This document shows, piece by piece, positions 7,009 to 46,020 of a stretch of DNA of 64,000 nt. Within the stretch, counting starts at the first letter, position 1. Each line of letters begins with the position of its first letter. Below the pieces are notes generated by a model, which was not told the DNA's origin, did no database searches, and saw only the letters and a list, made by a program, of their open reading frames with translations. Position numbers and translations under genes: made by a program. The DNA is from Candidatus Krumholzibacteriota bacterium (GTDB lineage: Bacteria; Krumholzibacteriota; Krumholzibacteriia; JAJRXK01): assembly GCA_963727455.1 (NCBI GenBank), contig CAVSGG010000008.1, positions 1 to 64,000 on the forward strand, read 5' to 3'.

Positions 7009-10000
7009 TCAGAATGTGAATGTCGCGTTGAACCCGAGACTGAAACTGGTCGAACCGTTGCGCGTGTTCGCAAGGTCCTTCGATTTGGAGAAACCGAGGT
7101 TCATGCCGGCATTCAGGGCGCGGCTGAACTGATAATTGAAGCGCGGCCGGATACTGTAGCTCCGGGTTCCGCTCAACTGGTCCTCCCGGTTGTTCTCCAG
7201 TTTACGCGAAGAGCTTCGCTGATCGAAGGCGAGATCGATCGTCATGTCGATCGTCGACCCGGTGCCTTTCTTGCCAAAGCGAAGAAATTTGAGGGCCCCG
7301 TTGGCGTCGAAGTTCTTTGAAAACTGCACGTTGACTCCGATGCGCTTGGAGGCGTTTTCCTTACCGGCCGACTGTGTCACGTCCTTGGTGACGTTTACGT
7401 TGACATTGGCCGCAACGTCGTTCTTGAAGCGTACATTCCACCGCGGCTGAATGCTCTGGGTCCTGATGCGGTGTCCCCGCGTTGACCGAGGTGACTCCAG
7501 AGGTGGTCTGCGTGTTGCGATAGGCGAAATCGATGGAGGAATTCGCCATCGATTCGCCGAAGATCCGCCACTTGTGGACGTTTTGGATCTTGAGGGTCAC
7601 CACAGGCCATTGACGGCTCGTGTTCTTGCGCCCGCTCTGCAAGTTGCTGGACTGCGTGTCCCAGTTGCGCGAGTAAGACAGATCCATGCGGATGTCGTTG
7701 TTCAGTTTCGTTTGAGTGCTCACGCTGAGGTTGTTTGACGGACGGTGATTGTACGAACTGAACTGATCGTCGATGGGGTTCCCTGCCGCGTCGTACTGAC
7801 TGCCAGCGCCCTTTACGCGCGGGTCGTCCAGTAATCCCAGGCGGAAGCCCAATGCCGCACGATTGCTGGCGTGTTGATAGCTGTTCTGGCGCCGCTGATT
7901 GTAGCTGACTCGAAACGGTTGCAGCCCCCGTAGCGCATTGGTGATGGGGCTGAAAAGCGCCGACAAGGCAGCTCCGGGGTCTATACGTTGGCCTTCGGCT
8001 TCGTCCTCTTGGCCCGGCTGCTCCTTTGGCTTCTGCGCAGGCGCTGCCACCTCGGTTTGGCCGGCACGCCCGGGAGGGGCTGCCGGAGGAAGGGCGGGCT
8101 TGGCCCCTCGCGTGGAATCCGCCTCCGCGGGGGTGGTCTTGACCCTCGTCTCGGAGCTGTCCGCGGAGCTTCCCTGCATGGGGGGTAGCACCACGCCCAG
8201 GCCCATGGGTATCGCCCCGGCTCGCGTCGAGTCGGCGGCGGCAGCACCGGTACTGTCCGCGGGGGCCAAGCTAGGAGCTTCCTGAACCTGCGGGTGGGGT
8301 GGCGGGACCTTTTCCACACCCGACGGGCCGGTTGACGGGAGGCTCGAGCTCCGTTCCCGTTTCTTGCGCTCTTGTGCCTTGCGTTCGCGCGGCAGGTTTT
8401 GCCGGGGAGACATACGTCGTGCTCCCCCGCTACCGAGGATTTTCTGGAAGAAACGGTTGAGCCCGACCTCACCCCGCACCGTGAGATCGCCGGAATTGCT
8501 GAGGTGACGCACCGGCGCCGGATCCAGGTAGATGGTGACGTCTTCTTCCTCCCCGGTGTCGGGGTTCACGCGTTTTTCGACGCGTGTGCGTCGCACCGAG
8601 ACCGCCCGGTTCTCGCTGTAGCTCCCGGTGAACTGGATGTCCGGCTTCAACCAACTGATCCCAGGGAAGAGGGGCGTGTAGTTAGCACTGAAACGTTCGG
8701 TATGCGAGTTTTCGGCACCCCAGTTGACTCCCAGAAATTCGACTTTCTTCTCGTCTATCACCGCGCCGGTGTCATCCACGATCAGTTGCCTGCGGTCCGG
8801 ATCACGCAAGGATCGGATGCTGTACAAGAGTCTTAGATTGCGTGCGGGGGACCAAGCGATGGAGGCGGTGTTGGACACTCCTCGATGCGAAGTTCCCGTG
8901 AGCTGGTAACTCCCATCCTCGAACTTGTTGGTTGTCTTGGTTTCGTCCTTGCTCCACACGCTGCCCAAGGAGAGCTGGTTCGGAAGATAGCGAAAGTCGT
9001 ACCCCAGGATGGGGATCGTGACGATCCCACGCGTGGCGAAGTTCAGATCGTAGTTGTATTGGGAGTTGCTGCTGAGCCGCCGAGTGTTTTGCCGGGGAGA
9101 ACTCCGTCGGCTTCGCGTTCGGCTATAGGAATAGGAGAGTCGGTCCACGGTATAGGCGAGAACTTTGTTCTGGCTCGTGCCCTGTTTGCGCAACTGGAAG
9201 TTGAAGCTCTCGTTGCTGTCTTTCGTGCTAAGAGAGTCCTGGAGATCGCTGTCGAAGAGCGTGATATCGTTGTTCGGGTAATACTTGGGAACGGAGGTTC
9301 GCTTGGTGGCGCTGAAACTGAAGGGAACGTCCACGCCGAAAGTCGGGATCAGGTACTGCAGCTTCGAGGAGGCGCGCATCTGCGCGTCTTGATCGGTCGA
9401 ACCGCTTCCCCGGTCCCGGTTCAATCCACGGAACTCGGCGTCAGTTTGGCTGATCGAACCCGAGAAATCTCCAAGTCCAGGGATGTTGGAACTCACGGAA
9501 AGTTGCTTGGCGTAGCCCGTCTTGCGGTTGACGCGGCGGATGCGCAGTTCGTTGAGCAGAACGTCTCCGGTGAGCAGGGGCCCCACCGGCACGCCGGTGC
9601 CATCCGTCTTTTTGGGATACCGCAATCCCGCGTAGTATCTGCGCACTCGCCTCAAGTCAGGTCGGCCACGGATCACCAGGTCGTAAATGCTCCCACTCAG
9701 ATTGTCGTGAATCGTTCCTTGGCGGATGATCTCTCCGGAGGGAAGGGTGACGTCGCGCGCGATCGAGTCGTCCACCTTGGCGCTAGTCATCTTGTCGATC
9801 GGAACTTGTACCTCGACCCAGCCGCTATTCGGATCCACTTCGACCTGGTCGAAGGGAAAGGAGATTTCGTAGTAGTTCAGAGAATCCGTGCCTACCCAAA
9901 AGAAGGGTACTAGCCCCTGTTGATCGGGATCGAGTTGGGCGGGGAGATGCACCGCCAGCGGTGCGCGCCAAAAGAAGTTCAGCTCGTTGTACTGACTGAA

Positions 10001-43556: not shown

Positions 43557-44909
43557 CTAGCCCACCGGCAGGCCGACGGGAAGCTCGGCCTCGCGCGTGG
43601 CAGCGTCGTGCAGAATTCTCTGGATCTCCAGGGCGGTACCGTCTGCCTGAGCGATCACCTTGAAGCTGCCGTCGGCGTACATCGACTCGATTGCATCGAC
43701 CACGTCCTCGGCGAACTGGCTCCCCTTGAAGCGGCGCAACTCCTCCATGCACTGCTCGAGCGAGAGCGCAGCCCGGTAGGGACGGTTGGAGGTCATGGCG
43801 TCAATTGCGTCGCAACAGTTGAGGATGCGGCTGCCCAGTTTGACCTCGTCGTCGCGTAGACCGTCGGGATAGCCCAGGCCATCCGGACGCTCGTGGTGAT
43901 GACGCACCAAGTCCGCCGCGCCCTTGAGGAACTTCATTTGAGAGACAATTTCGCCCCCGATCGCGGGATGGGAAGCGAGGATGTCGAACTCGTCCTTGGT
44001 CAGGCGCGCCGGTTTGCAGACGATGTCGTTGGTGATGGCGATCTTGCCTATGTCGTGCAGCAGTCCGGCGTACTCGAGCTCCTCGAGTTCCTCCGGCCCC
44101 ATTCCCATCCGCTGACCGATCTGCACTGCGTACTTCGCCACGCGATAGCTGTGCCCGTGCGTGTAGGGCTCGTCCGCTTCCAGGGCGGTGGTGAGCGCGG
44201 CCACGGTGTTGATGTGCGCTTCCTTCATTTCCTCGAAGAGCTTGTGGCTCTGCCAGATGATGAACAGCGGCAATCCAAAGAGCAGCAGCGACCAGAGTCC
44301 CGCGTACTCGTAGGAGAAGATGAGGAAAGCGCTCAGGGGTGCGGTGAGCAGGCCACTCAAAAAGTGCCAGGCGTAGTCGCCGCGCCAAACTTGATTCCAG
44401 GTCCGCCCTTCATTCAGGACGAGAACCGTGCTGGTGAGCGTCATGTTGACGCCAGAGAAAACCATGTGTGCCACGAGCGCGGGAATGAGGAACAGCGGCG
44501 AGGAGAGACTATCGACGCTGCTCCAGGGCAAGCTATGAAAAACGATGCCGGCCACTCCAACGGAGAAAGTCATCATCGCGATGTTGAAGATGACCTTCAA
44601 CGGAGAGCGACGCTTGATCAAGCCATCGCCCACCAGCAAACTCGCGCCTTCCATAAGCATCGCGGCAGCCGGACCGAGGGTTGCGATCACCGCAATGTCC
44701 ACGGTGGAGGAGGCCAGCCAGTCTCCGCCTGCTGAGGTCTTGACCTCGAAGAAATCGACTCCGATCAAGAACACACTGAAGCAGAGGATCGGAAGCCACT
44801 GAAGTGGTGAGATGGGGTAACGCTGAAATACCCACCAGCCCAACGCGTACGCCGCTACGGTGAGGACAAGAACGTAGAGAATTGCGATTGGTTTGCGGCG
44901 TATGAGCAT
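43557..44909 (-). CDS. Multi-TM membrane sensor fused to an HD-GYP cyclic-dinucleotide phosphodiesterase
   Basis: About 7-8 hydrophobic segments in the first ~220 aa; YTHGHSYRV, LLHDIGK, HHERPDGLGYPDGL and DAIDAMTSNRPYR motifs. Confidence 0.92.
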   Translation of the reverse strand: MLIRRKPIAILYVLVLTVAAYALGWWVFQRYPISPLQWLPILCFSVFLIGVDFFEVKTSAGGDWLASSTVDIAVIATLGPAAAMLMEGASLLVGDGLIKRRSPLKVIFNIAMMTFSVGVAGIVFHSLPWSSVDSLSSPLFLIPALVAHMVFSGVNMTLTSTVLVLNEGRTWNQVWRGDYAWHFLSGLLTAPLSAFLIFSYEYAGLWSLLLFGLPLFIIWQSHKLFEEMKEAHINTVAALTTALEADEPYTHGHSYRVAKYAVQIGQRMGMGPEELEELEYAGLLHDIGKIAITNDIVCKPARLTKDEFDILASHPAIGGEIVSQMKFLKGAADLVRHHHERPDGLGYPDGLRDDEVKLGSRILNCCDAIDAMTSNRPYRAALSLEQCMEELRRFKGSQFAEDVVDAIESMYADGSFKVIAQADGTALEIQRILHDAATREAELPVGLPVG

Positions 44910-44938
44910 TTGACCAAGGCCGGTTGAGAAGAGTTAGA

Positions 44939-44974
44939 CTACCACTTCACCTTACTACCGAGGACCCAGAACAT
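44939..44974 (-). CDS. Unannotated 11-aa small ORF MFWVLGSKVKW
   Basis: ATG TTC TGG GTC CTC GGT AGT AAG GTG AAG TGG TAG, preceded by SD GAGGTG (44980-44985) at 5-nt spacing; the stop is 29 nt before the HD-GYP ATG. Confidence 0.6.
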   Translation of the reverse strand: MFWVLGSKVKW

Positions 44975-45137
44975 TTTCCCACCTCACATCGGATTGGATT
45001 TGCCGCCATGCTCCGCTAGGGGGCGGCAGTGAGGCTTCGCTACGCGCTCGGGAATATGTGCTCCGCTCGGGGTTTCTCTGCAGACAACTCCCCTCAACCG
45101 GCCAAAAAGAGACCACGACACAAGTCGCGACTTGCCA

Positions 45138-45887
45138 TCAGGCCGAGGCGGCCCGCCACGAGATCTGCTCGAGGGTGGCGTCCTCGTCCTGTACCATCAA
45201 GTCCTGAAACTCCGCTTTGCCCAGAGGCCGATTCAGAGCATCAAGACAGGCGTAAACCGTTGATTCATAAAGAGATCCATTGTCCCAGCAGGTACCGGCC
45301 AGGCGCTGGATCTGGCGATTTGCGCCGAAATCCAGCACTACGATGACCAGGGACCCGCCGGCCAGTGAGGCCACTCGGGTGGTCCTCAATTGGATCTCAT
45401 ACTGGGGTTTCAGCAAGTTGCGCACCGCTTGGACCGCCGCCTGGGCCACCAGAGCCACGCAGGCGTCTGCGCCCAGAGCCGGGCCTTCCGAGCGGCCAGG
45501 CAGGCCCTCGAAAGCGCCCAGACTCAACTCGACCTCGGCGACGAAATTTCCGCCGCTGGTGGTGGAGTGAACTGCGGCCAGACGGATCCGTGGCTGCGAG
45601 CGCGACGGGGGCCGGCTCACGGTCGACTGGTTTGAGGGGAGGGGGGAAGTGTGCGAGGAATTGAGCTGAACCACGCCGATCTTGCGATGATCCACCTGAA
45701 CACCGTGGCGACGGAGCACCGCTTCGACATCGCGCACGATGGGACGGGGAGGACGCTGGGTATCGCTCAAAACGTCGATCTGTTCGATTTCATGCTGAGC
45801 GTCCAGAATCACGGAGGCGTAGCTGACGTTGCGAATCCTCGAGAGCTCGCGCTCCACCTCCATCACTTTCTTCGAATCGAGACTCAT
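45138..45887 (-). CDS. Hypothetical two-domain protein (C-terminal part resembles the LeuA allosteric/dimerisation fold)
   Basis: N-domain IVRDVEAVL..VDHRKIGVVQ; Pro/Ser linker; C-domain ending VYACLDALNR; SD AGGTG before ATG 45887. Confidence 0.7.
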   Translation of the reverse strand: MSLDSKKVMEVERELSRIRNVSYASVILDAQHEIEQIDVLSDTQRPPRPIVRDVEAVLRRHGVQVDHRKIGVVQLNSSHTSPLPSNQSTVSRPPSRSQPRIRLAAVHSTTSGGNFVAEVELSLGAFEGLPGRSEGPALGADACVALVAQAAVQAVRNLLKPQYEIQLRTTRVASLAGGSLVIVVLDFGANRQIQRLAGTCWDNGSLYESTVYACLDALNRPLGKAEFQDLMVQDEDATLEQISWRAASA

Positions 45888-46020
45888 GGATCCACCTGAG
45901 TTCTTTCTGCCCATTCCGCTGCTCCGGCGGGATTCGTCGCGCTACGACTGTAGCACACGGCTTGATCCGCCACCAAGGAAGAAACAGACTAAGCCATGAA
46001 ATGACAAAAGATTGAAGGGT

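Follow-up and report, generated by a model that had tools for sequence, protein, structure and literature searches.

In type I toxin mRNAs such as that of hok/Sok, a long-distance interaction joins the 5' and 3' ends of a small message, and the stems cut by RNase III flank rRNAs and the early mRNAs of phage T7. Translational coupling through long-range mRNA structure is known from the MS2 coat and replicase genes and from the IF3-L35-L20 operon, the trp leader and TnaC are leader-peptide attenuators with Trp codons, and MgrB is a small membrane protein that modulates a sensor, PhoQ. In the part of the aapA3/IsoA3 report drawn on here (PMC6733600), the hallmarks of type I toxin mRNAs are a 5'-3' long-distance helix, a Shine-Dalgarno (SD) sequence masked by an anti-SD strand, and a short hydrophobic peptide, and a passage of a study on Clostridioides difficile (PMC13724677) describes small proteins regulated by cyclic di-GMP (c-di-GMP) riboswitches. 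Here, we describe an RNA element on the minus strand of a 64,000-nucleotide (nt) stretch of a Candidatus Krumholzibacteriota bacterium genome (GenBank assembly GCA_963727455.1, contig CAVSGG010000008.1, positions 1 to 64,000; hereafter, the window). In this element, a long-range helix, P1, encloses a small open reading frame (ORF) between a gene for a 258-amino-acid (aa) protein and a gene for a MASE9-HD-GYP protein. P1 is real and conserved in uncultured bacteria and is not a product of chance, and we lean towards regarding it as the architectural helix that closes and bounds a micropeptide mini-mRNA of ~185 nt between these two genes. Rfam 15 gave no match at the gathering score in the whole window and none up to an E value of 10 in 44700-45300, and no description of the element was found in the open-access literature.

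P1 is formed on the minus strand by a 5' arm (45086..45103, read 45103-45086) and a 3' arm (44918..44935, read 44935-44918), which make 18 of 18 consecutive pairs, and the two DNA-level mismatches between the arms become G-U pairs on that strand. The 3' arm begins 3 nt past the stop of the small ORF and ends 8 nt short of the HD-GYP ATG. A first-pass annotation, made from the letters of this DNA, had given these coordinates, the 18 pairs, the two G-U pairs, and both spacings, and all of them were correct when the minus strand was re-read. The fold that it had proposed as a check also contains the helix: the minimum free energy (MFE) structure of 44900-45137 on the minus strand includes P1 at a free energy of -95.9 kcal/mol (z score of -3.3; 1 of 200 shuffled sequences was as good). 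The duplex of the two arms alone amounts to -32.5 kcal/mol, and the helix can be extended to 23 bp, with a one-nucleotide bulge on each strand, for -38.9 kcal/mol. Within the window, P1 is the most complementary of 17 inverted repeats of at least 16 nt that lie at most 300 nt apart, which, taken alone, is modest evidence for it. The element is single copy in its genome, and an origin as a repeat or mobile element was rejected for this reason. Elsewhere in the window, 8326-8343 on the plus strand matches the P1 5' arm with three mismatches, probably by chance.

The stem is not absent from relatives, in which a covariation count, a check of the kind that the first-pass annotation had called for, found compensatory changes throughout P1. 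A DNA-level search of 41 genomes, among them that of the window, gave matches in 10, and the region was present in all four other genomes of the genus and in four of the five genomes of the family's other genera; one match (L010) sits inside an ORF of more than 1,000 aa and was dropped as spurious. The consensus of an eight-sequence MAFFT alignment has a 12-bp closing helix, P1, with compensatory changes at 8 pairs, and a covariance model was built from this alignment. In the model-fitted alignment of 38 elements, 94.1% of the P1 cells are paired, compared with 59.2% when shuffled and at most 45.6% when slid, both-side changes occur at 12 of the 12 P1 pairs, and the covariation score is 0.765 versus 0.198. 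Since the figure for these 38 rows depends on an alignment fitted to the covariance model, the P1 count was redone on a structure-blind MAFFT alignment of 26 distant elements, from which RNAalifold again recovered P1, with 94.1% of cells paired, compared with at most 47.9% when slid, and with double changes at 6 of 11 pairs. The P1 cells include 30 G-U but only 6 A-C combinations, and P1 is therefore selected on the sense RNA strand; selection at the RNA level on the minus strand, which had been suggested from the two G-U pairs, is thus borne out by both alignments and by this asymmetry. Folded singly by MFE, all 39 distinct elements pair their first 35 nt with their last 35 nt (8 to 30 bp), whereas the same criterion of at least 8 bp holds in 40 of 146 control windows of equal length shifted by 600 to 900 nt, and 22 of the 39 elements form at least 20 end-to-end pairs. 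The possibility that P1 is merely a chance or DNA-level inverted repeat, such as a mobile-element remnant, without RNA function might draw on the 16 further inverted repeats of that size and spacing in the window, but it is already contradicted by the covariation data. The compensatory changes at each P1 pair, the excess of G-U over A-C, and the single copy per genome with a position kept in 39 distinct elements leave it a negligible probability.

The distribution of the element follows that of the HD-GYP gene. A search with an alignment of the upstream 258-aa protein yielded 80 loci from public genome contigs, labelled mostly as Candidatus Krumholzibacteriota or Krumholzibacteriia and otherwise as Eisenbacteria, Latescibacterota, Gemmatimonadota, or unclassified metagenome-assembled genomes. 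The covariance model matches 38 of these loci (34 at an E value of 0.01 or better), and all 38 matches lie on the strand of the 258-aa gene, between it and the next gene. The synteny is PfkB-family kinase, 258-aa gene, element, MASE9-HD-GYP gene, and purM-like gene. An HD-GYP homologue is located downstream in 50 of the 80 loci, 37 of which carry a model match. Among the HD-GYP loci without a match, L068 has the peptide and a long-range helix, and five of Eisenbacteria type have a variant in which the motifs are of AGCGAAGCG type and the peptide has 20 residues. In the remaining seven, L046, L052, L056, L057, L064, L065, and L067, some of which are labelled Latescibacteria/Latescibacterota or Chitinivibrionia, no small-ORF element was found, and the MASE9-HD-GYP gene comes almost immediately after the 258-aa gene. 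The 30 loci without an HD-GYP match gave one model match, at a locus that ends 228 nt past the element, and in most of the others the 258-aa gene runs straight to the purM-like gene. With matches in 37 of 50 against 1 of 30 loci, the element therefore travels with the HD-GYP gene and not with the 258-aa gene. Among whole genomes, the model found one copy in each of nine genomes of the window's family, and in a second family it matched 5 of 43 genomes of a class sample and 6 of 60 of a phylum sample. In seven other families, it matched 0 of 98 (class sample) or 0 of 81 (phylum sample) genomes, under strict filters that may under-count weak members.

In the Eisenbacteria-type variant, the P1 5' arm overlaps the last codons and the stop of the 258-aa gene. 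A duplex test of the variant loci, which is noisy, gave few shuffles as good in L086 (0 of 200), L036 (1 of 200), and L035 (3 of 200) and was no better than shuffles in L033 (85 of 200), L053 (51 of 200), L075 (151 of 200), and L076 (195 of 200); P1 and its overlap with the upstream gene are thus clear in the first three loci but not in the other four. The Eisenbacteria-type loci L033, L035, L036, L053, and L086 have their variant small ORFs downstream of the 258-aa gene, encoding MWELLLDLLSLVFEGKSGWM-like peptides. In the Gemmatimonadota-type loci L075, L076, and L091, the peptide has 24 residues, and no HD-GYP gene lies within 2.5 kb.

The module closed by P1 spans 170 to 220 nt and contains tandem GAGCGGAGC motifs, an anti-SD/SD hairpin, and the small ORF. 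GAGCGGAGC or a close variant of it occurs two or three times and is the most conserved feature of the module apart from the SD. In the window, motif 1 (45060..45068, minus strand, as are all positions in this paragraph) is the tandem motif that the alignments show to be kept across lineages, and motif 2 (45034..45042) is a degenerate copy, UAGCGAAGC, that continues directly into the anti-SD strand. The latter, GCCUCAC (45029..45035), pairs with the SD strand GUGAGGU (44981..44987) to form helix 4, which is found in the fold and by covariation, with changes at 4 of 7 pairs and 90.9% of cells paired; GCCUCAC/GUGAGGU is the form of this pairing in the window's family, and inspection of an alignment gives CACCUC/GAGGUG for the second family. 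An inner hairpin, helix 5 (45001..45028; 45028-45022 paired with 45007-45001), carries both-side changes at 7 of 7 pairs, with 98.4% of cells paired, and presents motif 3, UAGCGGAGC, in its apical loop (45018-45010). The SD of the small ORF is predicted to be masked, with a mean unpaired probability of 0.14, a value below 0.2 in 29 of 39 elements, and 0.02 in the window. In the thermodynamic model, removal of the 3' arm frees the SD (accessibility gain above 0.3) in none of the 39 elements, and P1 and the SD trap are therefore independent modules.

The element has conserved unpaired motifs and an SD-sequestering helix, and a riboswitch, in which an aptamer binds a metabolite and alters an expression platform, is conceivable. 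If a ligand or protein opens the anti-SD helix, the tandem motifs would be the obvious place for its site. Motifs of the GAGCGGAGC type are kept from Krumholzibacteriota to the Eisenbacteria-type and Gemmatimonadota-type variants, with the peptide sequence changing. Binding of CsrA or TRAP to these GGA/GAG-rich motifs was dropped, though not disproved, as no gene for CsrA (PF02599) or TRAP (PF02081) was found in the genome, which is 88.85% complete. A paper (PMC13443453) gives low frequencies of predicted-functional CsrA in Krumholzibacteriota.

The first-pass annotation had also held that the stem encloses a micropeptide ORF, and the coding signatures agree. The small ORF (44939..44974) consists of 11 codons and TAG, translates as MFWVLGSKVKW, and is preceded by GUGAGG. 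By every sequence test applied, it is coding: in 26 distinct 14-codon versions from relatives, the entropy at codon positions 1, 2, and 3 is 0.69, 0.56, and 1.16, the stops are divided between TAA (13) and TAG (13), and the ratio of synonymous to non-synonymous changes is 0.34 in frame, compared with 0.13 and 0.17 in the other frames. The common form of the peptide reads M-[LI]-[DE]-[WF]-[LI]-[LM]-G-L-F-x-K-[WF]-E-W. Peptide length is 11 to 19 residues across the elements and 11 to 14 in the window's genus and wide group, and the variants in the window's family are shorter or longer and also end in Trp. The first-pass annotation had pointed out that 2 of the 11 codons are Trp, and the idea that these matter as codons does not hold in relatives: of 24 peptides, 10 have Phe or Tyr instead of Trp at position 4 and 8 do so at position 12, and only the terminal Trp is invariant. 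These replacements indicate selection at the protein level for aromatic residues rather than for UGG codons, and Trp-codon sensing by a leader-peptide attenuator was rejected, as the regulatory codons are not kept as codons.

Sequences from RNA libraries (four libraries from four studies, with close relatives of the element) bear on whether the P1-bounded segment exists as a unit. Three contigs of 165 to 174 nt from two studies end at ~44921 to 44923 without loose ends and reach ~45086 to 45093, and one adapter-flanked insert of 143 nt covers 44950-45092. The near arm-to-arm contigs are a weak hint that a P1-bounded unit exists, with some molecules continuing upstream. Adapter-flanked inserts of two studies (X1 and X6) end within 4 nt of 44950, at 44946-44950 on the minus strand in the last codons of the small ORF, which could reflect a processing site, a reverse-transcription stop before P1, or coincidence. 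There was no cover on 44700-44915 in four RNA runs and none above 45108 in three, and such absence of cover is no evidence.

What P1 does to the HD-GYP gene was the subject of the first proposal of the first-pass annotation, in which a ribosome reaching the peptide stop melts the stem, so that the masked HD-GYP start is opened and the enzyme is made only together with the peptide. The geometry in the window suits this proposal, with P1 at -26 to -9 of the HD-GYP start (ATG at 44909), and the small-ORF stop 3 nt ahead of the 3' arm; across the window's family, the distance from this arm to the HD-GYP start is 7 to 9 nt in five loci and 23 to 33 nt in two. The claim that this ATG has no SD of its own also stands: none of GGAG, GAGG, and AGGA occurs upstream of it in the window, and an SD is lacking in all seven family loci and likewise in most lineages. 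The strong SD of the small ORF is itself gated, which would make the arrangement a two-step cascade. SD-less starts are, however, common here, with an SD core at the first start in only 19 of 45 long ORFs of the window (background of 0.18), and the claim that the stem lies over the initiation region holds in the window's family but not in 25 of 29 other loci, where the first in-frame HD-GYP start candidate is at least 45 nt from P1; the other four have earlier candidates at 13 to 38 nt, the use of which is doubtful. As the arm is adjacent to the start only in the window's family, the masking is family specific, and P1 is older. The core 3' arm, moreover, is up to 15 to 18 nt away from the stop codon in several lineages. 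When a terminating ribosome was modelled by forcing -12 to +14 around the P-site codon at the stop (the size of a ribosome footprint) to be unpaired, 11 to 14 bp of P1 stayed in 9 of 9 family members, with a residual duplex of -21 to -23 kcal/mol, and the unpaired probability of the window's HD-GYP ribosome-binding site moved only from 0.38 to 0.41, in an equilibrium model that ignores helicase action and post-termination scanning. Opening of the helix is thus incomplete in the model, and we consider coupling of this kind unlikely. RNase III cleavage, which the first-pass annotation had offered as its alternative, would make P1 and its extension a processing stem, from which a small, stable RNA for the peptide would be released, and the HD-GYP mRNA would keep a leader that is unstructured and very short. 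The 18 perfect pairs and the bulged 23-bp form, the 22 elements with at least 20 end-to-end pairs, and an RNase III gene (rnc; E value of 1e-38) in the genome are consistent with it, as are the contigs of two studies that stop at 44921 and 44923, the adapter-flanked insert that starts at 45092, and, as a hint only, the fact that no examined RNA-library contig reaches the HD-GYP coding sequence. RNase III usually needs roughly 20 bp, about two turns of double-stranded RNA, but the core P1 is 8 to 12 bp in several lineages, and a 475-nt contig passes from 44950 through the 5' arm into the upstream gene. Release of a small peptide RNA by RNase III is possible, but as the explanation of P1, it is rather unlikely, though less so than coupling.

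Termination would be another way for P1 to set a boundary, as the stem of an intrinsic terminator at which transcription of the upstream operon would stop after the small ORF, keeping that operon apart from the HD-GYP gene. In 9 of 39 elements, the 3' arm is followed immediately by at least four U in a row; among the elements with U-tracts are members of the second family (six or seven U in three) and, by inspection, the Eisenbacteria-type L035 and L036. The window has no such tract (its longest run is 2), nor do 30 of the 39 elements, and in the window's family, the HD-GYP start follows P1 by 7 to 33 nt, which leaves no room for a promoter. Intrinsic terminators do not typically have a stem that encloses about 150 nt, as P1 does, and we therefore rate this explanation as improbable. 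Still less probable is a type I toxin-like mRNA, in which the 5'-3' interaction would keep the message of a small hydrophobic toxin inert until 3' trimming, as in hok and aapA. All three hallmarks named in the aapA3/IsoA3 report can be recognized in the element: its ends pair over a long distance, its SD is masked by an anti-SD, and its peptide is short and hydrophobic. A hok-like fold-back control of the SD was rejected on the failure of modelled 3'-arm removal to free the SD in any of the 39 elements, and a toxin-like message also fits poorly with one copy per genome in fixed synteny with HD-GYP across lineages, a peptide of only 11 to 19 residues, and no antisense promoter-like site in a scan limited to the sigma-70 type.

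The architectural reading of P1 is preferred because no other role suits every lineage. P1 occurs both where the first HD-GYP start candidate is at least 45 nt away and in the Eisenbacteria-type variant, and its ancestral role is therefore not HD-GYP gating. Of the earlier interpretation, the RNA-level selection and the enclosed coding ORF are retained, whereas HD-GYP gating as the conserved purpose of the stem is not. Once the 3' arm is transcribed, P1 would lock the segment as one compact domain, pairing both ends of the unit and insulating the SD switch and the small ORF from flanking sequence, and would itself have no control over the small-ORF SD. It would define or protect a discrete RNA, with ends produced where P1 is cut, within the helix or at its border, or, in some lineages, where transcription terminates at a following U-tract; a discrete, protected RNA is the likely product, and cleavage of the helix in its extended, 23-bp form is a likelier release route than its melting by a ribosome that terminates. 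The spacer to the HD-GYP gene appears to have collapsed in the window's family, so that the position of P1 over the start region would be a secondary consequence, and there P1 would be expected to hold HD-GYP translation down on unprocessed transcripts until it is removed.

Several points weigh against this architectural reading. "Architectural" is a weak functional claim, and a specific partner of P1, such as a protein or ligand, is conceivable. The spacing of 7 to 9 nt is kept across three genera of the window's family, and such a kept tight spacing could mean that HD-GYP coupling is itself selected in the family. A core helix of 8 to 12 bp is short for RNase III, and U-tracts occur in the minority of elements given above and not in the window. 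The RNA-library contigs do not show RNA ends, strand, or level, and DNA may be present in the libraries; the 475-nt contig bridges the element and the upstream gene, and some molecules are therefore continuous on the 5' side. The largest covariation figure, as noted, comes from the model-fitted alignment.

A more specific proposal would give the closed RNA a purpose. The closed-loop P1 RNA, with its GAGCGGAGC/anti-SD sensor, would gate the synthesis of a Trp-ended hydrophobic micropeptide of 11 to 20 residues that serves as a dedicated intramembrane ligand or subunit of the MASE9-HD-GYP protein, and cleavage or opening of P1 would set the ratio of peptide to enzyme. MASE9 is proposed to bind a ligand within the membrane, according to the section of a preprint consulted here (10.1101/2021.11.05.467447). 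We put this proposal forward tentatively, as a possibility clearly less probable than the architectural role alone.

The genes and features around the element are as follows. The MASE9-HD-GYP gene (43557..44909, minus strand) encodes 450 aa with intact HD and GYP motifs (HD_5, E value of 1e-30; MASE9, E value of 3.5e-9). The upstream gene (45138..45914, minus strand) encodes the 258-aa protein, for which no Pfam, NCBIfam, or PDB-sequence match was found. Its AlphaFold model (predicted local distance difference test score, pLDDT, of 80.1) starts with an alpha/beta domain and continues through a disordered linker rich in Pro to a double beta-beta-beta-alpha domain in the C-terminal half, and the fold of the latter resembles the leucine-binding regulatory domain of LeuA (Foldseek E values of 2.6e-4 to 8.3e-4 over ~128 columns). 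On the basis of this model, the 258-aa protein may be a small-molecule-binding regulator. Between its stop codon and the P1 5' arm, a terminator-like hairpin (45112..45131, minus strand), the only terminator-like site in 44600-45500, has a U-rich tail (U5; 45111-45102) that abuts the P1 5' arm. The hairpin occurs in the window's genus only, in all five genomes, and with it in place, the element may be transcribed either by read-through or from a promoter of its own. A scan limited to promoters of the sigma-70 type found no promoter-like site on either strand at the locus. A plus-strand ORF (45029-45346) was considered as an antisense gene and rejected as an antisense shadow, its frame being broken in L003 and L005. 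Directly after P1, a 5-bp hairpin (44917-44913 paired with 44892-44888) is predicted around the HD-GYP AUG at 44888-44917 on the minus strand; L013 has a both-side change in it from G-C to A-U that also alters a codon, and the hairpin is common to three close relatives only.

The interest of the element lies mainly in the strength of the covariation, in an ORF enclosed by a long-range helix, and in the strict association with MASE9-HD-GYP. To our knowledge, no ligand of the MASE9 membrane sensor domain has been described, and a conserved micropeptide gene within its own covarying RNA, tied to a MASE9-HD-GYP gene, is a concrete candidate partner. The element adds a well-supported RNA family from phyla without cultured representatives and is a rare case of a long-range helix around a translated-looking ORF outside toxin-antitoxin systems. 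With ~185 nt and three separable parts, namely, the closing helix, the tandem motifs, and the SD trap, the RNA is tractable. If the sensor-gated peptide proposal were true, the element would represent an undescribed class of structured mini-mRNA across several uncultured lineages.

Compared with the known systems, the element combines features of several. It resembles the upstream-sequence helices over the next gene's initiation region in MS2 and the IF3-L35-L20 operon in the window's family only, and it differs from them in that the upstream ORF stops before the helix, that 11 to 14 bp persist in the model, and that the arrangement is absent in most element-bearing lineages. Like the trp leader and TnaC, it has a tiny Trp-containing ORF in a structured leader upstream of a gene, but its internal Trp residues give way to Phe or Tyr, no terminator/antiterminator alternative was found, and the downstream gene is unrelated to Trp metabolism. 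As with MgrB-PhoQ and the small proteins of c-di-GMP circuits, the product of the small ORF is a tiny hydrophobic peptide, and the neighbouring gene encodes a membrane sensor enzyme, here one of c-di-GMP signalling; the peptide is, however, shorter than a transmembrane helix, unlike MgrB-type small membrane proteins, and its interaction with the HD-GYP protein is hypothetical. It shares with the RNase III stems of rRNAs and T7 early mRNAs the long-distance pairing of the flanks of a putatively functional RNA, the cutting of which would free that RNA and reshape the downstream leader, although the core stem is much shorter in many lineages (8 to 12 bp) and the cleavage is putative. With hok and aapA, it shares a small mRNA whose ends pair, an anti-SD that traps the SD, and a very short hydrophobic peptide, and it differs from them in the independence of the long-range helix and the SD trap, the single copy, the synteny with HD-GYP, and a peptide of 11 to 19 residues. 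Defining features of type I toxin mRNAs and RNase III stems are lacking in the element or only putative in it; by analogy, this structured, closed small mRNA nevertheless appears to work most like the SD-trapped type I toxin mRNAs and the RNase III processing stems.

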